The translations under genes and the position numbers were made by a program. A stretch of 8,718 nt of DNA from a virus (Duplodnaviria > Heunggongvirae > Uroviricota > Caudoviricetes): IMG/VR virus record IMGVR_UViG_2529292985_000034; one strand, written 5' to 3'. Below are positions 1-8,718 of this stretch, one piece after another. The stretch's first letter is position 1. Each line of letters begins with the position of its first letter. The notes beneath the pieces are model-generated. The model saw only the letters and a program-made list of their open reading frames with translations. It was not told the origin of the DNA and did not search any database.

Positions 1-1218
1 ATGAACAAACTGAGCGATACCTTGCTAAGGAAACTTCATGGTAAGCCAGCGGAGAAAAACACGTTTTATAGTGATGGCGGAAACCTGAGCGTGAAATATT
101 TAACATCAGGGAAATTGACCTGGTATTTCACATACAGGGCCGGAACGGGAAGGGAGACACGACCCGAACGCATTAAGCTGGGAAGTTATCCTGATCTGAG
201 CCTGAAATCAGCCAGGGAAAAAGCCGCCCAGTGTCGCGCATGGCTGGCAGAGGGGAAAAATCCACGTCATGAGCTTAATTACACCGTACAGGAAGCGTTA
301 AAGCCGGTAACGGTTGGCGATGCGCTCACCTACTGGCTTGAGTATTACGTAAAGGAAAACCGCGTGGATTATATCGCCCTGAAAAGGCGACTTAATAATC
401 ACGTAATACAGCAGATTGGTGCTATGCCGCTGGATAAATGCGAGCTACGGCACTGGCTGGCCTGTTTTGACCAGGTGGCAAAGCGAACGCCTGTTACTGC
501 CGGATTCGTGCTACAGGCGTGCAAACAGGCGCTTAAGTTCTGCCGTAGGCGGCGCTATGCAATCAGCAACGTTCTGGACGATCTGAACGTGGCGGACGTT
601 GGGAAAAAACCGGATATAAGCGAACGTGTCTTAAGTAACAAAGAACTTGGCGAATTATTGCAGGCACTGGACAAAAAAATATTCTCCCCTTACTACGTCG
701 CGTTAATCCGCCTCCTGATTGTCTTCGGAGCCAGAACGGTAGAACTGAGGTTATCGGAGATCGGGGAGTGGGATTTTACGGAAATGCTATGGACCGTTCC
801 GAAGGAGCACAGCAAAACGAAGGTCGCAATATTCCGGCCCATACCGGAAGCGATCCTGCCGTTCGTCACGCAGCTGGTGGAGCAGAACAGGCACACGGGC
901 TTATTGCTGGGGGAAGTGAAACAGGAGGCCAGCGTATCGCAGTATGGAAGATTAGCGCACAGGAGGCTTAATCATCCTCACTGGTCACTGCATGACATCC
1001 GGCGCACCTTTACAACCATGCTGAACGATTTAGGCGTTGATCCGCATGTCGTGGAGCAGCTTACAGGCCACCAGATGCCAGGAATGCAGCGAGTTTATAA
1101 TCATTCCCGTTATCTGGATGCTAAACGCAATGCGCTGGATATGTGGACGGAGCGGTTAGGGATACTGGCGGGAACACATGAAAACGTAACCACGCTACCA
1201 GTAGCCAGAAGAAAATAA
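1..1218 (+). CDS. int: P4-family tyrosine recombinase / integrase (405 aa)
   Basis: Full ORF from ATG at 1 to TAA at 1216-1218. N-terminal region (YSDGGNLSVKY...TWYFTYR) resembles the arm-binding domain of P4-type integrases. C-terminal catalytic signature residues are visible: ARTVELR (box I Arg), HSKTK (Lys), HDIRRTF (His-x-x-Arg), VYNHSRYL (Tyr). Confidence 0.9.
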   Translation: MNKLSDTLLRKLHGKPAEKNTFYSDGGNLSVKYLTSGKLTWYFTYRAGTGRETRPERIKLGSYPDLSLKSAREKAAQCRAWLAEGKNPRHELNYTVQEALKPVTVGDALTYWLEYYVKENRVDYIALKRRLNNHVIQQIGAMPLDKCELRHWLACFDQVAKRTPVTAGFVLQACKQALKFCRRRRYAISNVLDDLNVADVGKKPDISERVLSNKELGELLQALDKKIFSPYYVALIRLLIVFGARTVELRLSEIGEWDFTEMLWTVPKEHSKTKVAIFRPIPEAILPFVTQLVEQNRHTGLLLGEVKQEASVSQYGRLAHRRLNHPHWSLHDIRRTFTTMLNDLGVDPHVVEQLTGHQMPGMQRVYNHSRYLDAKRNALDMWTERLGILAGTHENVTTLPVARRK

Positions 1219-1235
1219 TTTTTTTCGTGTTTTTT

Positions 1236-1251
1236 CAGTATGCGCATACTG
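1236..1251. repeat. Perfect 16-bp palindrome CAGTATGCGCATACTG just downstream of int
   Basis: Read directly: CAGTATGC / GCATACTG are exact reverse complements. It is preceded, not followed, by T-tracts, so it looks more like a protein-binding dyad than a plus-strand terminator. Confidence 0.4.
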
Positions 1252-1263
1252 TATATGCGAACA

Positions 1264-1313
1264 GATACAACGTGCAACAATGAGCAACAATGTGGAACAA
1301 CCACGAACAAGAG
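1264..1313. repeat. Four to five phased 10-bp repeats with AACAA core
   Basis: Tandem 10-mers at 1274 (GCAACAATGA), 1284 (GCAACAATGT), 1294 (GGAACAACCA), 1304 (CGAACAAGAG), plus a degenerate copy at 1264 (GATACAACGT). Period is exactly 10 bp, in the int-alpA intergenic region. Confidence 0.4.
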
Positions 1314-1404
1314 GCGAAAAAGCATACAGATTTATAAGTGGCTGATTTTTAATGTGTCACTGGTTTTTTATACACTAGCGAATCACTCTTTAAAGAGCGA
1401 GAAA

Positions 1405-1433
1405 AAAGGCATGAAACAATATTTTATGCCTTT
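1405..1433. terminator. Putative intrinsic terminator hairpin in int-alpA spacer
   Basis: Perfect 8-bp stem AAAGGCAT (1405-1412) / ATGCCTTT (1426-1433) with a 13-nt loop. Flanked by an A-run upstream and TTTGTATT downstream, so it could terminate in either orientation. Confidence 0.3.
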
Positions 1434-1584
1434 GTATTAACATGAATTTAAAATATTTTATTCTTACTGTTTCATTTTCTGTAAATCATACATCCTCAAT
1501 ATTTGCCATTCATCACTCTAGCGGGAACAATACGACACAATAAGACACCTGATGACTCTTTAAGAAACGAAAGGGGGGGCAATA

Positions 1585-1773
1585 GTGTTAAGCACTGATC
1601 GGTTTATACGTGAAAAAGAATGCGAAAAACTAACCGGCCTTAGCCGTACGTGTCGCTACCGCCTGGAAAAGGCCGGACAATTCCCATCACGTCGTAAACT
1701 TGGCGGTCGTTCCGTTGGCTGGTCTTTATCCGAGGTTCTGGCCTGGAAGGATAGCTGCAAGGCAGTTCATTAA
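1585..1773 (+). CDS. alpA: AlpA/Vis-family phage transcriptional regulator (excisionase-like, 62 aa)
   Basis: GTG start at 1585 preceded by a G7 Shine-Dalgarno tract (1573-1579). Sequence DRFIREKECEKLTGLSRTCRYRLEKAGQFP matches the AlpA/Vis helix-turn-helix signature (ELTGLSRSTIYRL...G.FP). Position just downstream of a P4-type int is typical. Confidence 0.8.
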   Translation: MLSTDRFIREKECEKLTGLSRTCRYRLEKAGQFPSRRKLGGRSVGWSLSEVLAWKDSCKAVH

Positions 1774-1917
1774 TCACGCTGGCGGCACGCAGCCGCCACA
1801 CATCAATCATCTGAACACAGAGCTATAACCATGAAGATTGAATATACGCCAGAACGTGGGCGGGGATTCGTTCGCCCTGGTGAAACTGAAAAACAACAAA
1901 ATTGGGGTTTTTCAGGT

Positions 1918-1953
1918 ATAAAAAAAGCGGCCCCGAAATGGAGCCGCCTTTCT
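1918..1953 (-). terminator. Rho-independent terminator (minus-strand orientation; possibly bidirectional)
   Basis: Stem GCGGCCCC (1927-1934) / GGAGCCGC (1940-1947), 7 of 8 pairs, 5-nt loop. On the minus strand it is followed by a U-run (plus-strand A-run 1918-1926). It lies between the convergent alpA and minus-strand small genes. Confidence 0.5.
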
Positions 1954-2042
1954 GAACAGATAACCCGCTGCGCCGTTTGTGTGTGTGATCCCAAACATAA
2001 GCACGGGGATGATAGCCGCTATCAGGCTGGTGGGCAATGCAA

Positions 2043-2216
2043 TCAGTCTGGTTCAGTTCGTTGCCATACCTGCAATGAGCGCTTTTCCCTGTACTCTTTA
2101 AGGAATTGCTCAAGGGCAAAAGCACATGGTGCGAATCTTTCTGATTCATGCTCTATCTTTCTGCGCCGTCTTTTCCGTGCCGGTGATAATGTTTTGGTCA
2201 ATTCTTTATCGGTCAT
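2043..2216 (-). CDS. Hypothetical small basic protein (57 aa; alternative start at 2231 gives 62 aa)
   Basis: Minus-strand ORF downstream of the RHH gene. The internal ATG at 2216-2214 has AGGA 7 nt upstream. Arg/Lys-rich N-terminus (ARKRRRRK). The minus-strand terminator about 90 nt downstream supports a two-gene transcript. No recognisable family. Confidence 0.35.
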   Translation of the reverse strand: MTDKELTKTLSPARKRRRRKIEHESERFAPCAFALEQFLKEYREKRSLQVWQRTEPD

Positions 2217-2273
2217 TGTGTTGTCCTGCATAGCAATGCGCCGTAATACCTCACACCACGGCGCTGATAGTGA

Positions 2274-2453
2274 TTATTCTGATTCTTTGGCCTTGCGGCG
2301 CTGGCGGCGTTTGATCTCGCCTTCAAGTGCCGAAACGATAAATTGCCCTGTACTTTCGCCATCTTCCTTTAAATTTTCTACAGCATCAGCTATTGCGTGT
2401 GGTACTCGAGCCTCAAGCTTTTTGGATTTTGCATTAACTGCTTTTGTTGCCAT
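2274..2453 (-). CDS. Ribbon-helix-helix (Arc/CopG-like) DNA-binding protein, 59 aa; candidate repressor
   Basis: ATG at 2453-2451 with GAGGA 8 nt upstream. KKLEARVPHAIADAVENL fits the RHH pattern: beta-strand with alternating polar residues, Pro, then helix A. C-terminal basic tail. Divergent from the operon promoter that carries the triple repeat. Confidence 0.6.
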   Translation of the reverse strand: MATKAVNAKSKKLEARVPHAIADAVENLKEDGESTGQFIVSALEGEIKRRQRRKAKESE

Positions 2454-2474
2454 ATCTGATTTCCTCGTTATTAG

Positions 2475-2555
2475 GTGGCTGACAGTATACACACAAGAAA
2501 ACGGAAAAACACTATTGACGTGGCTGACACCCGTTACTAATATAGTGGCTGACAC
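2475..2555. promoter_or_regulatory. Operator-like triple direct repeat GTGGCTGACA
   Basis: Exact 10-mer GTGGCTGACA at 2475-2484, 2520-2529 and 2546-2555. Copy 2 lies in the promoter spacer; copy 3 lies just downstream of the -10 element, over the likely start site. Each copy has outer GTG/CAC dyad symmetry. Confidence 0.5.
2515..2543 (+). promoter_or_regulatory. Sigma70-like promoter for the rightward operon
   Basis: TTGACG (2515-2520), 17-bp spacer, TAATAT (2538-2543). About 100 bp upstream of the first operon ORF. Confidence 0.45.
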
Positions 2556-2647
2556 CTTTATCAAGGTAATCGATGAAAAGACAAAGCCCCGCAAGTGTCG
2601 TTACCACTCGCAGGGCTTCTAACCAACAACGTAAACTAGGAGCCGTT

Positions 2648-2845
2648 ATGGTTGCTGTAAATCATATACCACACCTTGTACACACACAAACGGCCTTTGT
2701 GTGGCGTTTTCTGGCACTGAGTGCCGGAGAATCTCAAATCATCCACGTAACCGCCTGGACGGAACGCGAAGCGCGTAACCGTTGCCCGTCCGGTTGTGTT
2801 GCTGTATTTGCCGCCCGTATTCGTCAGGAGGTGCGCCATGATTAA
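2648..2845 (+). CDS. Hypothetical protein, 65 aa (first gene of early operon)
   Basis: ATG at 2648 with GGAG 5 nt upstream (2639-2642). Stop overlaps the start of the next ORF. The longer 2573 start of the tracked ORF has no RBS and runs through the promoter. Confidence 0.55.
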   Translation: MVAVNHIPHLVHTQTAFVWRFLALSAGESQIIHVTAWTEREARNRCPSGCVAVFAARIRQEVRHD

Positions 2846-3050
2846 TCTGTCACTTACTGACCTTAACCGCATTCAGTTTCGTGAGAAATTCACAGGGCAG
2901 CTACTGGTCAATGTGGATAAAGGTCGCGTGGTGTGTAATTACCACTTACCAGATGAAGCAATTGTCGCCACAAGGGAATCATTACAGGAAATCACAAAAC
3001 GTGCCGGAATGATTAACACGAATATTCAGGGGATGCTTTATGCACAATAA
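2838..3050 (+). CDS. Hypothetical protein, 70 aa
   Basis: ATG at 2838 with AGGAGG 6 nt upstream (2826-2831). Overlaps the preceding stop by 8 nt and the next start by 11 nt (translational coupling). Confidence 0.6.
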   Translation: MINLSLTDLNRIQFREKFTGQLLVNVDKGRVVCNYHLPDEAIVATRESLQEITKRAGMINTNIQGMLYAQ

Positions 3051-3279
3051 AACCACACCGGACGCAGCCGCCGAAGCCATCAAAACGCTGATGCACGCGC
3101 TGATTGATATTTCTGTTATCGCGGACAGGGCACATAAGCACGCCACCAGCGAAACAGAATATGCCGGTGCTTTCGTTCCTCACTCACTGGCTGTCATGCA
3201 ATTTAGTGCTGATACGGCGCTGAATGAGGCCAAAGCTATCCTGATTGCTGATTGTGAAAATGGGGGGGGTTATGCGTGA
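3040..3279 (+). CDS. Hypothetical protein, 79 aa
   Basis: ATG at 3040 with AGGGGA upstream. The C-terminus (ENGGGYA) is encoded across a G8 homopolymer. Its stop overlaps the next start (ATGCGTGA). Confidence 0.6.
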   Translation: MHNKTTPDAAAEAIKTLMHALIDISVIADRAHKHATSETEYAGAFVPHSLAVMQFSADTALNEAKAILIADCENGGGYA

Positions 3280-3505
3280 TGATCGTTTTAATTCCCTGAA
3301 ACAGGAATTTTCCGGCGTTCCTGATGATGCGGCTGATGCGCTTTCGTCAATGCCAGAACTTATTAGAGCGGCTTTTTTCTTACTTTCCACGAGAGAATAT
3401 AAATCAACGGGGCTTGATGTACTGAATATCGCCGCCGATTATGCGGAATATGTGGCAGAGGCGCGTTATAGAAGAAAATTTCCTGAGGATGTAAGCCATG
3501 CGTGA
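3272..3505 (+). CDS. Hypothetical protein, 77 aa
   Basis: ATG at 3272 immediately after the G8 tract, which acts as RBS. ATGCGTGA overlap with the upstream stop. The same junction geometry recurs at 3498. Confidence 0.6.
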   Translation: MRDDRFNSLKQEFSGVPDDAADALSSMPELIRAAFFLLSTREYKSTGLDVLNIAADYAEYVAEARYRRKFPEDVSHA

Positions 3506-3731
3506 TATTTACCACCAAACAATAGACCGCGCATTTCTTGCACTTTCTCACAGTGAAAACATGATGGAAATATTGCGCATATGGCTTGAAACACTTGGCG
3601 ACAATGAACGCGACAAACAAAAATCAAGAATTGCCACAGCATTAATAACGCTTCTTGAGCCTGTAATAATGGAACTGCAAGAAATAGATCTATTGCACGA
3701 CAGATATAAAGAACAGCACACCGGAGAATAA
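3498..3731 (+). CDS. Hypothetical protein, 77 aa
   Basis: ATG at 3498 with GAGGA 9 nt upstream. ATGCGTGA overlap with the upstream stop. Predicted largely helical, acidic. Confidence 0.6.
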   Translation: MRDIYHQTIDRAFLALSHSENMMEILRIWLETLGDNERDKQKSRIATALITLLEPVIMELQEIDLLHDRYKEQHTGE

Positions 3732-3736
3732 AAATA

Positions 3737-4036
3737 ATGAAACTTAAATATTCTGGCTTAACTGCCAGTGGCAACACTCACCCTAAATTTACGCGCGGTG
3801 ATATTTACCGCGACCAGTACGGCGGCACGGTAATGATTAAGGACGTGGAAGAACGGCGCGTAACCTACCGCCGTGAAGGTTACGAATATGATTGCGTGAT
3901 GCCTGTTTATCAGTTCCGGCGTGATTTTTCTCTGGTACAGACCGCGCCGCATAACGTGCCCACCAGCAACGCCAGGGCACGGGCAAACATCCAGAAGCTG
4001 AAAACCATGGTTAACGGATTCAGGGGCAAGAAATGA
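3737..4036 (+). CDS. Hypothetical protein, 99 aa
   Basis: ATG at 3737 with GGAGA 10 nt upstream. Stop overlaps the start of the replication gene (ATGA at 4033-4036). Basic, Tyr/Arg-rich. Confidence 0.65.
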   Translation: MKLKYSGLTASGNTHPKFTRGDIYRDQYGGTVMIKDVEERRVTYRREGYEYDCVMPVYQFRRDFSLVQTAPHNVPTSNARARANIQKLKTMVNGFRGKK

Positions 4037-5433
4037 AAAGCGCACCGAACTTAAAAAAACAGCCTTACGACAAGATGACCGAAGTCATTATTTTTGCGGG
4101 TAGTGATGCCTGGGCACATGCGAAACAGTGGCAGGAACAGGACGGGCGACTGGCTGGCGATAATGTGCCTCCCGTTGTGCTGGCTGATGATCAACTGGAT
4201 GAACTGGCAGACCTGAGAATCATCGACGAGGGGCGCTATTGTGTCCGGCTGTACAAGGCAGGCCACATCAGGCCATCAAATATTAATGCCATTGCGCACA
4301 AGCTGGCGGCGGCGGGTGTAACTGATGCGAATTATTACCCCGAAGGGATGCACAGCCATATGCGGGAGAACTGGCGCGAATACCTGGAACGGGTGCGCGG
4401 GAAAGAGCCGGCGGAAGAAAAAAACCACCAGCGAAAAACCACGCTACCGATGAGCGTTGGATCTACCGGATACGACACGCAACTGGATTACGTGGTTAAG
4501 GGGATTATTCCGGCGGTATCGCTATGCAGCATATACGGGGCTAGCGGGTCCTATAAATCATTCCTTGCCGGATCGTGGGCGTGCCATGTTGCCACTGGTC
4601 GCCAGTGGGGAGGCCGCAGGGTTGCACATGGTGCGGTTCTCTATGTGGTTGGTGAAGGCGGTATAGGTGTTCCGCGTCGTGTAAAAGCCTGGGAGGTTGT
4701 GCACGATGAGCAGGTGAAAAATCTGTATCTGGTAAACCGCCCCATCTTTCCGGCTGCCCCGCTTGATGTTGATGAAATGGTTATCGCTGCCCGTCAGGTG
4801 GAGCGGGAAACGGGTAAACCTGTACGCATGATTATTCTGGATACGCTGGCGCGTTGCTTTGGTGGGAATGATGAAAATGATTCCCGTGATATGGGGGCGT
4901 TTATCCGTGGTTGTGACGAACTGAAACGACGCACAGGGGCCACGGTGCTGGTGGTTCACCATTCCGGCAAGGATGAGACGAAAGGCGCGCGCGGTTCCAG
5001 TGCATTTCGTGCTTCGCTGGATGCTGAATACCGGATACGCAGGGAGGACGCAGGAAGCGAAGCGCTGGTTATCTCATGCACCAAAATGAAGGACGCGGAG
5101 GAACTCAAAGAAGCCGCATATGACTTACGCGTGGTGGAGCTTTTTACCGACGCTGACGGTGAATTAATCACGTCGCTGGTGGTGGTGGATGATCCGCGCC
5201 CTCCTGTTGAACTGGAGCGCATCGAGGAGGCAGGGAACAAGACGGAAAACCATACCGCGCTATGGGGGTGCATCCGTTCACGCACACAGAACGGCGACAA
5301 GTGCACGATCCCGCTGTTACGTGATGACATGAAAAAGCTGGGGTATGAAATGAAAAACTTCCGGCGCTGGCTGTACAAGCTGGAAAAAGATGGGGTTATT
5401 CGTATCGATGGGGATGATGTAGCGCCGCTATAA
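4033..5433 (+). CDS. Replication protein: toprim-like N-terminal domain + RecA-like/RepA-type P-loop ATPase (primase/helicase of the island), 466 aa
   Basis: Walker A GASGSYKS, Walker B-like VRMIILDT, and an N-terminal acidic toprim-like segment (VIIFAGSDA ... LADDQLDE). Last gene of the coupled operon; iteron array immediately downstream. Confidence 0.85.
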   Translation: MKSAPNLKKQPYDKMTEVIIFAGSDAWAHAKQWQEQDGRLAGDNVPPVVLADDQLDELADLRIIDEGRYCVRLYKAGHIRPSNINAIAHKLAAAGVTDANYYPEGMHSHMRENWREYLERVRGKEPAEEKNHQRKTTLPMSVGSTGYDTQLDYVVKGIIPAVSLCSIYGASGSYKSFLAGSWACHVATGRQWGGRRVAHGAVLYVVGEGGIGVPRRVKAWEVVHDEQVKNLYLVNRPIFPAAPLDVDEMVIAARQVERETGKPVRMIILDTLARCFGGNDENDSRDMGAFIRGCDELKRRTGATVLVVHHSGKDETKGARGSSAFRASLDAEYRIRREDAGSEALVISCTKMKDAEELKEAAYDLRVVELFTDADGELITSLVVVDDPRPPVELERIEEAGNKTENHTALWGCIRSRTQNGDKCTIPLLRDDMKKLGYEMKNFRRWLYKLEKDGVIRIDGDDVAPL

Positions 5434-5624
5434 AAGTGAGGAGCAAAAGCGAGGGGGATAGAAAGAGGGCCAAAATTAGCCCGCTCTCCCTCACTTTTCG
5501 ACCTGTATACATCCTCAAAAGTGAGGGGTAAAAAAATACTTATGAAACACACACATAGAAAAACCGAAAATCCCAACTGCGACGAAGTGAGACGCTTGAA
5601 AAAGTGAGGCGAAAAAGTGAGAGG
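5432..5624. repeat. Iteron array (AAAGTGAGG family) with A-rich spacer; putative island replication origin
   Basis: Copies at 5432-5441, 5517-5528, 5584-5592, 5599-5610, 5612-5624; variants at 5445-5457 and 5461-5469; an inverted copy at 5489-5498. The inverted copy forms a perfect 10-bp inverted repeat with the 5517-5526 copy. An A-rich stretch lies at 5529-5575. Confidence 0.55.
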
Positions 5625-5633
5625 TTGCGAGAA

Positions 5634-5785
5634 ATGACCCAAAAACGCAGAGACAGAACAGAGCCAAAATATAAAGCGTTAGACATGACTGAGCACACCT
5701 TAAAGGTGGCAATCAGAACGATAGACCGCCACACGCGGGAAGGATACGCGAAGGAACATCCCGACCTGATAAGCGCATTCATGAC
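5634..5785 (+). pseudogene. Small island ORF whose 3' end is replaced by the IS600 terminus (doubtful gene)
   Basis: ORF beginning MTQKRRDR... runs in frame into the IS left inverted repeat, where it meets a TGA belonging to the IS. It overlaps the iteron region, so coding status is uncertain. Confidence 0.25.
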
Positions 5786-5849
5786 TGAGGTAGCCTGAGT
5801 TTAACGGACACTCCTTCCTGAAATAGAATGGCATCAGAAGGAGCTAATA

Positions 5850-6152
5850 ATGAGCAGAAAAAACCAACGTTACTCTAAAGAGTTCAAAGCCGAAGCTGTC
5901 AGAACGGTTCTTGAAAATCAACTTTCGATCAGTGAAGGCGCTTCCCGATTATCCCTTCCTGAAGGCACTTTAGGACAATGGGTTACCGCCGCCAGAAAAG
6001 GGCTCGGTACTCCTGGTTCCCGCACGGTGGCTGAACTGGAATCTGAAATTCTGCAACTGCGTAAGGCGTTAAATGAAGCTCGCCTTGAGCGAGATATATT
6101 AAAAAAAGCAACAGCGTATTTTGCACAGGAGTCGCTGAAAAATACGCGTTAA
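5850..6152 (+). CDS. IS3-family transposase OrfA (HTH, leucine zipper), 100 aa
   Basis: MSRKNQRYSKEFKAEAVR... is typical of IS3-family OrfA. Slippery A7 run at 6101-6107 near its 3' end. Confidence 0.9.
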   Translation: MSRKNQRYSKEFKAEAVRTVLENQLSISEGASRLSLPEGTLGQWVTAARKGLGTPGSRTVAELESEILQLRKALNEARLERDILKKATAYFAQESLKNTR

Positions 6153-6187
6153 TCGAACAATGGCGACAACAATTTCCCATTGAAGCG

Positions 6188-7006
6188 ATGTGTCAGGTAT
6201 TTGGTGTATCCAGGAGCGGTTATTACAACTGGGTACAGCATGAACCCTCAGACAGAAAACAAAGTGATGAGCGGCTAAAACTGGAGATTAAGGTGGCACA
6301 TATCCGCACTCGCGAAACATATGGAACCCGGCGGCTCCAGACGGAGCTGGCAGAGAATGGCATCATCGTTGGTCGTGACCGACTGGCACGTCTTCGTAAG
6401 GAGCTAAGGCTACGCTGTAAGCAGAAACGCAAGTTCAGAGCGACTACGAACCCGAACCACAATCTGCCAGTTGCGCCAAATCTGCTGAACCAGACGTTCG
6501 CTCCTACAGCACCAAATCAGGTCTGGGTGGCGGACCTGACGTATGTTGCCACACAGGAGGGATGGTTGTACCTCGCTGGCATCAAAGATGTTTATACGTG
6601 CGAAATTGTCGGCTACGCCATGGGAGAGCGCATGACAAAAGAGCTGACAGGTAAAGCCCTGTTTATGGCGCTCAGGAGCCAGCGCCCACCTGCCGGGCTA
6701 ATCCACCACTCTGATCGAGGTTCACAGTACTGCGCATACGATTACCGGGTCATACAGGAGCAGTCTGGTCTGAAAACATCAATGTCGCGTAAAGGTCACT
6801 GTTACGACAACGCTCCGATGGAAAGCTTCTGGGGAACGCTGAAAAATGAGAGCCTGAGCCACTATCGTTTTAATAACCGGGATGAAGCCATCTCAGTAAT
6901 ACGGGAATACATTGAGATTTTCTACAATCGTCAGCGTCGTCACTCTCGTCTGGGGAATATCTCCCCGGCAGCCTTCAGGGAAAAATATCATCAGATGGCT
7001 GCTTAA
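6188..7006 (+). CDS. IS3-family transposase OrfB (DDE catalytic domain), 272 aa; expressed as OrfAB fusion by -1 frameshift
   Basis: DDE motif residues in WVADLTYV, HHSDRGSQY and YDNAPMESFWGTLK. The orfB frame is -1 relative to orfA and is open upstream back to the A7 slippery site. Confidence 0.9.
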   Translation: MCQVFGVSRSGYYNWVQHEPSDRKQSDERLKLEIKVAHIRTRETYGTRRLQTELAENGIIVGRDRLARLRKELRLRCKQKRKFRATTNPNHNLPVAPNLLNQTFAPTAPNQVWVADLTYVATQEGWLYLAGIKDVYTCEIVGYAMGERMTKELTGKALFMALRSQRPPAGLIHHSDRGSQYCAYDYRVIQEQSGLKTSMSRKGHCYDNAPMESFWGTLKNESLSHYRFNNRDEAISVIREYIEIFYNRQRRHSRLGNISPAAFREKYHQMAA

Positions 7007-7049
7007 AAAAAGAACAAATGGTAGTGTCCGCTATTGCCAGTACACCTCA

Positions 7050-7894
7050 GTTTACTGGTGGGCTACATCGCCTGGCTGGCGACCGCTTACCGGATGAGCT
7101 TTTCCCGCGAAATCAATCTGGGCCTGGCGCAACATGAGTTCGAATTGTTCTGTCAGCCTTTGCTTAATGCGCGCAGCCAGCAATGTATTGGTGTAGAGAT
7201 TTTGCTGCGCTGGAACAATCCGCGTCAGGGCCGGATTTCACCGGATGTGTTTATTCCTATCGCGGAAGAACATCATTTAATTGTGCCACTGACCCGCTAT
7301 GTGATGGCAGAAACCATTCGTCAGCGCCATGTTTTCCCGATGAGTAGTCAGTTTCATGTTGGCATTAACGTCGCACCCAGCCATTTTCGCCGTGGTGTGC
7401 TGATAAAAGATCTCAATCAGTACTGGTTTAGCGCTCACCCGATTCAGCAACTGATCCTCGAAATCACCGAACGCGATGCCTTACTGGATGTTGATTATCG
7501 GATTGCCCGCGAGCTACATCGTAAAAACGTCAAACTGGCGATTGATGACTTCGGCACCGGCAACAGTTCATTTTCCTGGCTTGAAACATTACGTCCTGAC
7601 GTGCTGAAAATTGATAAGTCATTTACCGCAGCTATAGGTTCTGACGCGGTTAACTCGACGGTGACCGATATCATCATCGCGCTGGGGCAAAGACTGAATA
7701 TTGAACTGGTGGCGGAGGGCGTGGAAACGCAAGAACAGGCGAAGTATTTGCGCCGTCATGGCGTGCATATTTTGCAAGGGTATTTGTACGCACAGCCGAT
7801 GCCGCTACGTGATTTTCCCAAATGGCTGGCGGGCAGCCAACCGCCGCCCGCCCGGCATAATGGACATATCACGCCCATTATGCCGTTACGTTAA
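7050..7894 (+). pseudogene. EAL-domain c-di-GMP phosphodiesterase gene, 5'-truncated by IS600
   Basis: EAL-domain motifs ELFCQP, DDFGTG, KIDKSF and VAEGVET. A transmembrane segment (LSLLVGYIAWLATAY) precedes the EAL domain. The reading frame is open right up to the IS end with no credible native start, consistent with a CSS-type membrane phosphodiesterase that has lost its N-terminal half. Confidence 0.8.
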
Positions 7895-7960
7895 CGCTGA
7901 TATGACTTTCCGTGTCAAACCGGAATCTCTAATTTTGACGATTTTCTTTTTAGGTTTAAT

Positions 7961-8145
7961 TCCCTGAGGGCGACGTAGCAGTAAATCCGACGGTGAATCA
8001 CGCTGATATTCGCGGGTTGGATACCGCATTACAGAGGTCCGTCATATGAGCCTGCCACTTTCTTACGTCGCGAATCAGCTTTGTTCCGCCGTCGCCAAGC
8101 GCTAACGTGGGTTACTCTTGTACCGGGCTACGTCGCCTTCAGGGA
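7961..8145. repeat. 185-bp structured palindromic element, closed by 19-bp inverted repeats
   Basis: TCCCTGAGGGCGACGTAGC (7961-7979) pairs with 8127-8145 at 18 of 19 positions. Internal inverted repeats include GCTGATATTCGCG (8002-8014) with CGCGAATCAGC (8069-8079) and GTAAATCCGACG with CGTGGGTTAC, on different centres. Lies 18 bp 3' of the IS110-family transposase stop. Confidence 0.5.
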
Positions 8146-8163
8146 ACTGGTTATTCTCATTTT

Positions 8164-8718
8164 TTATTTGTGACATTGTGGTTGTTGTGCGACAGACATT
8201 GCTATTCGGCCCATATCCCAGATAAAACCCGCCAGCTCACGTGCAACAGCAACAATTGTAATATTGACATTCTTTCCTTTGGCCTGAAGTTTTCGATACC
8301 TCTTACAAAGCCTGAGTTGAGCATCCCATGCTCTGTCAATGACGGGGCGGGGTAAATTTTCCTGCCTTTTTTGTATTGCCGGACTGATGCGTGCCGGATG
8401 ACGGTAACTCCACGCTGCCTCGACCAATAGCTTTCTGGCATAGCTGTTTCCGGCTTTGGTAATGCTGCCCTGATGTCTGCTTCCACCCGATGAATATTCT
8501 GATGGCGTGATACCAAACCATGACATCAGTTGTCGTGGATGTTCAAAACGGGTCAGATCACCCAGTTCAGAAATTAATCCAACCGCAGTAATAAACTGAA
8601 TCCCTCGCATGGCTTGCAGCGCCTCTACTACCGGATACAGCCTCCATTCGGTAACGGCCTCCTTCAGGGCGGATTCCAGCCGTTCACATTGTGCCTGCCG
8701 GTCTTCTATTGTACGACG
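8164..8718 (-). CDS. IS110-family transposase, C-terminal part (N-terminus beyond window end)
   Basis: Minus-strand frame is open from the window edge to the stop at 8166-8164. GIQFITAVGLISELGDLTRF...GSRHQGSITKAGNSYARKLL is characteristic of the IS110/IS116/IS902 transposase C-terminal domain. Confidence 0.8.
   Translation of the reverse strand, partial: RRTIEDRQAQCERLESALKEAVTEWRLYPVVEALQAMRGIQFITAVGLISELGDLTRFEHPRQLMSWFGITPSEYSSGGSRHQGSITKAGNSYARKLLVEAAWSYRHPARISPAIQKRQENLPRPVIDRAWDAQLRLCKRYRKLQAKGKNVNITIVAVARELAGFIWDMGRIAMSVAQQPQCHK

Follow-up and report, generated by a model that had tools for sequence, protein, structure and literature searches.

Ribbon-helix-helix (RHH) repressors such as Arc and Mnt at immI of phage P22, CopG, omega of pSM19035 and AmrZ act on repeated operators that lie on a promoter, and the sites of MetJ, omega and Arc are adjacent. 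In the lambdoid immunity regions, repressor, operators and promoter are swapped as a block between similar genomes, with many specificities. The Stl/Rpr repressors of Gram-positive PICIs (SaPIs) are encoded divergently from the excision/replication operon and are highly diversified (PMC6092414). In Gram-negative PICIs, helper phages switch on alpA, and AlpA is needed for induction (PMC6092414, PMC11773190, 10.1101/2022.09.08.507074). This requirement holds for EcCICFT073, EcCIEDL933 and EcCIMP1, and overexpression of AlpA alone leads to excision and runaway replication of EcCICFT073 (PMC6092414). Later surveys give AlpA as the sole regulator (PMC10111431, PMC13612085), and no repressor for Gram-negative PICIs is named in the openly searchable literature.

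The window described here is a stretch of viral DNA of 8718 bp, positions 1-5785 of which match an island in the E. coli 042 chromosome at 99.9% identity. The 042 island carries, in this order, the integrase, AlpA, a divergent YlcI/YnfO gene, an Icd-like gene, small genes including a DUF4222 gene, and a RepA-family helicase, and then runs on to SSB, PerC and a major capsid gene; in the window it is interrupted at 5785 by an IS3-family element. The int, alpA and replication genes share one orientation and the origin follows the replication gene, the arrangement that defines Gram-negative PICIs. PICI origins lie right after the replication gene (PMC6092414), and capsid-carrying Gram-negative PICIs share this gene layout (PMC6092414; 10.1101/2022.09.08.507074). 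Judged by its gene content and order, the window is a PICI satellite of the Gram-negative type. A marked O42 element gave no transfer with its resident prophages (PMC6092414). The features of the island used below are:

1-1218: integrase gene, int
1585-1773, plus strand: alpA, encoding the known activator of this island class (Pfam Phage_AlpA, 5e-17)
2043-2231, minus strand: ORF62, a probable unannotated gene 3' of the RHH gene and outside the cassette (tblastn; phrog_21027, 1.6e-15)
2274-2453, minus strand: YlcI/YnfO-family RHH gene, 59 aa, candidate repressor (ATG 2453-2451, SD GAGGAA 2466-2461)
2281-2575, 295 bp: exchangeable cassette of RHH gene, three boxes and promoter, delimited by block replacement in alignments
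2648-2845, plus strand: Icd-like gene, first of the controlled operon (NCBIfam NF033153, 5e-18; annotated in RefSeq in 042)
4033-5433: RepA helicase gene (AAA_25, 2e-43)
5433-5622: ori iterons, six copies of AAAGTGAGG, directly 3' of repA

Between alpA and the replication genes, three short boxes lie on and beside divergent promoters, and they are probably operators for the 59-aa YlcI/YnfO-family protein encoded next to them. The arrangement recalls each of the systems above. Like the known RHH repressors, the island would have repeated operators on a promoter, but its RHH protein lacks detectable sequence similarity to Arc/Mnt, CopG, omega or AmrZ, and its boxes are 25 and 45 bp apart where the sites of MetJ, omega and Arc adjoin. 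Like the lambdoid immunity regions, the unit of gene, boxes and promoter is exchanged as a block; however, the cassette is of ∼300 bp, has one regulator and no Cro-like partner, uses an RHH rather than a helix-turn-helix protein, and resides in a satellite that also needs the activator AlpA. It shares divergent orientation and diversification with Stl/Rpr, from which the island RHH protein differs in fold and size, and, in contrast to Stl, the Gram-negative helper works, to current knowledge, through turning on alpA. As in P1 c4/P4 CI, an icd-type gene heads the operon, with a predicted RNA complementary to the ribosome site, but neither the C4 nor the isrK model of Rfam matches the island. 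The mechanism proposed is thus a classic one and what is new is its context, a candidate repressor in Gram-negative PICIs belonging to the YlcI/YnfO family, which has no assigned function.

The 59-aa protein matches the NCBIfam profile YlcI_YnfO_N (NF041551) over all 42 profile positions with 60.6 bits (cutoff 30, E 1e-16), and also matches phrog_949. Pfam gave no match, nor did single-sequence and profile searches of the PDB; neither collection linked the sequence to a curated RHH family or to an RHH protein of solved structure. Modelled as a monomer, the protein adopts a ribbon-helix-helix fold, with an N-terminal strand followed by two helices, and the G-x-S/T/N turn that opens helix B is present (G32-E33-S34-T35). 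Among 39 homologs E33 is invariant, and G32, S34 and T35 are each conserved in at least 90%. Assignment to the RHH superfamily rests on this predicted fold, which bears out the preliminary description of the divergent gene as RHH. A literature search returned no paper on the function of the YlcI/YnfO family, and no report of binding or repression by any of its members.

The boxes and the promoters around them are as follows:

2475-2485, plus strand: box O1, GTGGCTGACAG, 8 nt 5' of the RHH SD and abutting the candidate -10 of P_RHH
2484-2489, minus strand: candidate -10 of the RHH gene, TATACT; the start would fall near 2477, inside O1
2515-2543, plus strand: rightward operon promoter, TTGACG (2515-2520), 17 nt, TAATAT (2538-2543), from a consensus scan
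2520-2530, plus strand: box O2, GTGGCTGACAC, inside the promoter spacer
2545-2555, plus strand: box O3, GTGGCTGACAC, directly past the -10 and over the predicted start

The shared 10-mer, GTGGCTGACA, occurs in three exact copies within the 8718-bp window, all on the plus strand, at 2475-2484, 2520-2529 and 2545-2554; the preliminary description had the first two right and the third, given as 2546, off by one. The match of copies 2 and 3 extends to GTGGCTGACACC, and that of copy 1 is GGTGGCTGACAG. None of 1000 dinucleotide-preserving shuffles of the window contained any 10-mer three times inside 100 nt, and the analytic expectation for such a triplet is ∼4e-5 per window; the triplet is far above chance expectation. 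Each box is a pseudo-palindrome of 11-13 bp, GTG-N5-CAC.

The rightward promoter has a -35 near consensus and an A-rich tract upstream, and its start is predicted near 2550. O2 begins on the final -35 base and occupies 9 nt of the spacer, O3 begins 2 nt past the -10, and O1 is 8 nt from the SD GAGGAA of the divergent gene, so that the earlier placement of the copies (one in the 17-bp spacer of TTGACG/TAATAT, one over the predicted transcription start, one just upstream of the ribosome binding site of the divergent gene) agrees with the consensus scan and the coordinates. On the minus strand, no good -35 is recognisable upstream of TATACT. The block (C)AGTATACAC adjoining O1 is retained in YlcI-type cassettes despite their differing boxes, and this block, which on the minus strand reads as the -10 TATACT, is probably the RHH gene's own weak promoter. 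The boxes thus overlie the core promoter of the rightward operon and adjoin the probable promoter of the RHH gene. Cooperative RHH binding to tandem repeats, proposed earlier, gains no support from this geometry, with boxes that are non-adjacent (box-to-box distances of 45 and 25 bp) and each itself pseudo-palindromic; it is more likely that each box binds an RHH dimer or dimer of dimers independently. A weak fourth box candidate lies 5' of alpA (GTGGCTGAtt at 1338); the G variant there is found in 5/6 window-type loci and 0/20 others, and it is not counted as evidence because the window-type loci that carry it are near-clonal.

The cassette boundaries come from islands in which 2281-2575 is swapped for unrelated DNA (EDL933, O145 RM10425 and JNE131328) between flanks that are 77-98% identical. 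The left flank begins at alpA and stops just beyond the end of the RHH gene (its stop codon); the right flank begins at the leader hairpin and reaches into the Icd-like gene. The replacing blocks carry:

EDL933, the prototype cf-PICI: an unannotated 43-aa Arc-like ORF, with two copies of the box GTGGTCACCT
O145 RM10425: a 44-aa ORF, with two copies of the palindromic box ATGGTAATTACCAT
JNE131328: a 100-aa YlcI/YnfO protein, with several GTATATC(A/T)CA boxes

To extend this comparison, 73 viral-contig loci were gathered by a 23-base anchor in the conserved leader, and the upstream DNA was sorted into types. At least 14 regulatory-region types occupy the cassette slot in these loci, and 13 of the 14 read as a small minus-strand gene with a type-specific repeated box, one type (L028) giving no clear reading. 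In 13/14 types a box directly follows the -35 (TTGAC(A/G)/TTGAA(A/G)), with a second box right after the -10. Relative to the start of the -35, the boxes of YlcI-type cassettes lie at ∼+5 and, in most, at +28 to +30, and a third box lies by the RHH ribosome site, usually ∼40 nt before the -35 start. When the box of each type was searched in the regulatory regions of all other types, allowing ≤1 mismatch, it was absent. Genes for AlpA, integrase and replication are freely reshuffled relative to the cassettes: of four AlpA lineages, that of the window accompanies nine cassette types, several types are paired with two lineages, and the window-type cassette is seen beside RepA helicase, DNA primase or DUF927 genes, as well as beside a different integrase. 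The slot thus has the properties of a phage-type immunity cassette, namely exchange as a block and, in each block, its own regulator and its own boxes. EcCICFT073 carries a YlcI/YnfO cassette of the same architecture, its protein annotated only as a YlcI/YnfO family protein, while in EcCIEDL933 the small Arc-like gene is unannotated and a long opposite-strand ORF is annotated over it.

Within the YlcI type, boxes and protein change together. In ∼92%-identical cassettes all three 10-mers are exact, and the substitutions fall in the spacers and the -10. In a 75%-identical cassette (CFT073, PKF11, GN05476) the boxes are two copies of GTGGGCCACACC and one of GTGGGGGACA; their cores have changed together and the GTGG...ACA(CC) edges are retained. 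The GTGGGCCACAC boxes go with the CFT073-type protein (QALKA), and the GTGGCTGACAC boxes with the window-type protein (KKLEA). It was predicted beforehand that homologs with the strand KSKKLEARVPH would keep GTGGCTGACA boxes and that homologs with other strands would not. The more distant islands, with the identity of their RHH protein to that of the window and its residues 11-15, are:

Proteus mirabilis: RHH 78% identical, KKLEA (the same); three exact copies of GTGGCTGACAC, with the 45/25 bp spacing kept
Xenorhabdus budapestensis: RHH 73%, KKLEA (the same); two exact copies of GGTGGCTGACAC (GTGGCTGACAC boxes), in DNA otherwise unalignable
Pectobacterium: RHH 76-78%, KRFDV; three copies of GTGTCCGACAC
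Enterobacter roggenkampii: RHH 68-72%, KRIDA; two copies of GTGTCCCACAC and one of GTGTCCGACA

The prediction held in Proteus and Xenorhabdus, which share the strand KSKKLEARVPH and have exact GTGGCTGACAC boxes; in the homologs with another strand the boxes have changed in concert. In an ungapped comparison of the window with Proteus, the boxes are identical at 33/33 positions and the other intergenic DNA at 35/73 (Fisher 9e-9); O1 itself is 100% conserved there. Proteins and their promoter-proximal boxes (12 pairs) were compared in a Mantel test, which related operator distance to the strand (r 0.52) and to the helix (r 0.57), both with p ∼0.001; as strand and helix residues both correlate, the test cannot assign specificity to the β-strand. 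These comparisons indicate that protein and operator co-diverge. The arms of YlcI-type boxes are conserved, (G/A)TG ... (A/T)CA(C/T), and flank a variable core, a form that fits a two-fold symmetric reader, and the co-variation is consistent with an antiparallel β-ribbon dimer in the major groove. With the gene and its boxes all inside 300 bp, linkage by itself should cause some co-inheritance; the case for operators is built on the joint change of every copy and on conservation across genera.

We infer a course of binding, repression, autoregulation and derepression as follows. RHH dimers, or dimers of dimers, would read the 11-13 bp sequence (G)GTG-GCTGA-CAC(C) through the N-terminal β-ribbon. 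Occupation of O2 in the spacer and O3 at the start would block RNA polymerase at the rightward promoter by steric repression, and with it expression of the Icd-like gene, several small genes and the RepA operon, leaving the island silent. Occupation of O1, at the start of the weak RHH promoter, would give negative autoregulation. Gene, boxes and promoter would together form a self-contained specificity cassette of 295 bp that is exchanged between islands by recombination. As the cassette has no Cro-like partner or second regulator, release must come from outside it, and the most likely route would be through AlpA, the activator that helpers induce and whose gene lies upstream, on the strand of the operon. 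A speculative link is that AlpA-dependent transcription from the alpA promoter might read through the terminator at 1927-1947 and across the cassette into the operon.

The repressor-operator reading of the preliminary description is thus strongly supported by the cassette swapping, the concerted box changes, the cross-genus conservation and the footprint comparison, while its term "master" immunity switch is overstated. AlpA is a required activator, and on its own it induces EcCICFT073, which carries such an RHH cassette; AlpA is thus epistatic to RHH, and RHH repression, if real, is not dominant. At most, RHH would be the repressor half of the control, overridden by AlpA. Within these bounds the RHH cassette is a strong candidate for the repressor that Gram-negative PICIs were thought to lack.

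Other readers of the boxes have to be considered, among them AlpA itself. P. aeruginosa AlpA is described as an antiterminator that binds a promoter-internal element and lets transcription pass a terminator further downstream (PMC9371919, PMC7969949), and the boxes could be loading or binding sites for an AlpA that acts in this way, or like lambdoid Q, from a promoter-embedded element to cause terminator read-through. AlpA is the known activator of Gram-negative PICIs, and a weak terminator-like hairpin is present at 2683-2703 on the plus strand. However, an identical AlpA (WP_000953272) in 042, EDL933 and O145 lies beside three wholly different box sequences, the reassortment that places one AlpA lineage with nine cassette types and several types with two lineages points the same way, and in Proteus and Xenorhabdus AlpA is a protein of 92-93 aa, yet the boxes are still GTGGCTGACAC; we consider AlpA a highly improbable reader. 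A role of the boxes as iterons of a replication origin or as arm sites for the integrase is scarcely credible. Short direct repeats could serve either purpose in an island with genes for an integrase and a RepA helicase, but these boxes are shared by islands with three different replication proteins and by islands with a different integrase, and the six AAAGTGAGG copies at 5433-5622, directly 3' of repA, are a separate iteron family. The exclusion of AlpA, Rep and Int as readers is a computed result, as are the fold, the cassette boundaries, the box-protein co-variation and the geometry.

A factor from outside the island, of helper phage or host, might read the boxes with the RHH gene as a linked passenger. 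Induction of Gram-negative PICIs needs helper phages (PMC6092414), and linkage alone would hold gene and boxes together. This reading would need at least 13 outside factors, each matching a cassette that has its own small DNA-binding gene, whereas box identity tracks the identity of the RHH strand across four genera, and neither DNA similar to the cassette nor a homolog of the RHH protein was found in a collection of 50,697 phage records; it is highly unlikely. The gene pair RHH-ORF62 could also be a type II toxin-antitoxin system with the boxes as its autoregulatory operator, which we judge very unlikely: the cassette breakpoint lies between the pair, ORF62 keeps 96-100% identity behind six cassette types with YlcI-type and Arc-like RHH proteins alike and has no Pfam, NCBIfam or PADLOC match (no toxin or defence profile), and the core of the opposite-facing operon promoter, not the RHH promoter, carries two of the three boxes. 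The RHH protein as repressor remains the best explanation of the boxes.

Downstream of the promoter, the leader of the Icd-like gene carries signals on the minus strand:

2573-2619, minus strand: intrinsic terminator from a terminator scan, stem-loop 2619-2583 with T-rich tail 2582-2573
2573-2656, minus strand: candidate cis-antisense RNA of ∼80 nt, covering the SD (2638-2642) and ATG (2648) of the Icd-like gene
2689-2661, minus strand: tentative antisense promoter, TTGTGT (2689-2684), 17 nt, TATGAT (2666-2661), with a start near 2655

The hairpin at 2583-2619, of 15 bp, lies between O3 and the Icd-like gene and is predicted to terminate transcription only on the minus strand. The minus-strand fold is the more stable one in each of 21 sequence variants (-27.9 vs -16.6 kcal/mol in the window), every plus-strand A.C mismatch in the stem being a G.U pair on the minus strand. 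Compensatory changes occur at two stem positions, and hairpins of this type are also found in Proteus, Pectobacterium, Enterobacter and CFT073. By these comparisons the minus-strand terminator is well supported; the antisense promoter and 5' end are tentative. The candidate RNA ends ∼20 nt from copy 3 and folds with an MFE of -35.5 kcal/mol (z -5.4), and its SL1 loop displays CUCCU, the anti-SD of the Icd-like gene; the plus-strand leader fold shows nothing unusual (z -0.6). The ∼100 nt at 2620-2720 are nearly invariant across islands. A search of Rfam with both strands of the whole window (E ≤ 1) gave no family match, including C4 and isrK. An RNA layer probably exists in the control region, one unlike the P4 CI RNA. 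Of the earlier contrast between a protein-based layout and the RNA-based immunity of P4, the lack of a CI/C4-type RNA, as judged by Rfam, stands, and the conserved antisense RNA candidate makes a purely protein layout doubtful. A pairing of the P4 seqA/seqB kind, suggested by a perfect 15-nt inverted repeat (1972-1986/2680-2694), was rejected because the upstream copy is missing in many loci with otherwise identical flanks.

A broader scheme can be outlined, which we regard as tentative and rather doubtful: the RHH cassette would be the global repressor of Gram-negative PICIs and the counterpart of Stl, its specificities would set immunity between satellites and helper specificity, helpers or AlpA read-through would relieve it, and the cis-antisense RNA would be a second lock. 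If true, this would be a three-layer switch of repressor, activator and antisense RNA, which is not described for any phage satellite. The candidate repressor is present in two experimental prototypes, EcCICFT073 and EcCIEDL933, and the YlcI/YnfO family gains a first testable function. The cassettes also offer natural, matched variants of protein and operator, with GTG...CAC arms and a variable 5-bp core, for the study or engineering of RHH specificity. They bear on how satellites are silenced, on helper specificity and on immunity among islands that share a genome (up to 5 places per genome), and also on PICIs as vehicles for delivery.

On the far side of the cassette, homologs of ORF62 detected by tblastn are 44-100% identical and have the same position in most loci. 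ORF62 overlaps a long plus-strand ORF, and the third codon positions of both frames coincide. The leftward RHH-ORF62 unit is closed by a terminator:

1918-1953, minus strand: terminator, stem-loop 1947-1927 with a U7 tail

On the minus strand this stem-loop has a folding energy of -21.7 kcal/mol (z -4.2); in the plus direction, after alpA, it is weaker (-13.8 kcal/mol, z -2.3).

The YlcI/YnfO cassette, the exchangeable block formed by the ribbon-helix-helix (RHH) gene, the 10-nt boxes as its putative operators, and the promoter of the rightward operon, is also present in an experimentally studied Gram-negative PICI:

L140, 22931-33655: EcCICFT073, the island of E. coli CFT073

Here the RHH gene product is WP_000190587.1, and the boxes (two copies of GTGGGCCACACC and one of GTGGGGGACA) have the same geometry as in the window. 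Because it combines this cassette and box arrangement with a record of experimental study, EcCICFT073 is a ready test system for the cassette.

Downstream of the RHH gene (the candidate repressor gene), the leftward unit includes two further features:

2043-2231, minus strand: ORF62, a 62-aa ORF and probable gene on the same strand as the RHH gene
1918-1953, both strands, stronger on minus: terminator hairpin GCGGCCCC-GAAAT-GGAGCCGC, with an A-run on one side and a T-run on the other

ORF62 matches phrog_21027 and has homologs (44-100% identity) at the same position in most related islands; it is not annotated in the RefSeq record of 042. On the minus strand, the hairpin is a strong predicted terminator (-21.7 kcal/mol, with a U7 tail), and is predicted to end the RHH-ORF62 unit. 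The weaker plus-strand terminator lies ∼150 nt past the activator gene alpA, and could be the obstacle to AlpA-dependent read-through. The same region is covered by a RefSeq annotation in the opposite direction:

L002 (EDL933) 2130-2873 (EDL933_RS32265) and window 1831-2622, plus strand: long ORF

This ORF, which extends from past alpA through the cassette, is labeled as a 247-aa protein in EDL933, a pseudogene in 042, and, in O145, as "Icd-like, incomplete". There is overlap with the small leftward genes, and in EcCIEDL933 the overlapped genes include a 43-aa Arc-like RHH gene that is itself unannotated. This long ORF probably arose as an artefact of annotation.

Two possible RNA-level features involve the 5' part of the Icd-like gene, the first gene of the rightward operon:

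2573-2656, minus strand: candidate cis-antisense RNA of ∼80 nt, with a tentative promoter at 2661-2689
1972-1986 and 2680-2694: two 15-nt copies, GCCGTTTGTGTGTGT / ACACACACAAACGGC, forming a perfect inverted repeat

Both the SD and the ATG of the Icd-like gene have their complement in the candidate antisense RNA, whose 3' end is a terminator predicted to function only on the minus strand. The RNA has a conserved structure that includes compensatory as well as G.U pairs; a search of Rfam gave no matching family. A role of the inverted repeat as an RNA-pairing device is unlikely, since many related loci lack the upstream copy (1972-1986), and this candidate was rejected.

The int-alpA intergenic region contains two sets of possible protein-binding sites:

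1338-1347: box-like site GTGGCTGATT, matching the box at 8 of 10 positions
1269-1309: three tandem AA(C/T)G(T/A)G(C/G)AACA-like units with 10-nt spacing, just past the integrase stop and upstream of alpA

The GG dinucleotide of the box-like site is the sole variable spot within a conserved stretch, and the GG variant occurs in 5/6 loci with the window-type cassette, compared with 0/20 others. The site may act as a fourth, weak operator close to the promoter of alpA, or mere clonal linkage may account for the association. AlpA or the integrase might bind the tandem units.

Further repeats, and the end of the island, lie beyond the replication gene repA:

5433-5622, both orientations: six repeats of AAAGTGAGG (≤1 mismatch), directly 3' of repA
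5850-6152 and 6188-7006: orfA and orfB of an IS3-family element, past the island break at 5785
7034-7894: EAL-domain gene fragment, beyond the IS3-family element
8164-8610, minus strand: IS110-family fragment

The window contains eight matches to AAAGTGAGG in all, a count reached in none of 200 shuffles, and the six repeats after repA are most likely the origin iterons of the island. Colinearity with the 042 island extends only to 5785 and is followed by other DNA, which leaves the window's copy of the island without the genes for SSB, PerC and capsid. The junction with the DNA at 5786-8718 was found in no complete E. coli genome of the collection. Within the colinear 5.8 kb, the window and 042 differ in length by 2 nt, and thus the gene at 3040-3505, present as two overlapping ORFs (3040-3279 and 3245-3505) in the window versus a single annotated 468-nt CDS in 042, is probably frameshifted in the window.
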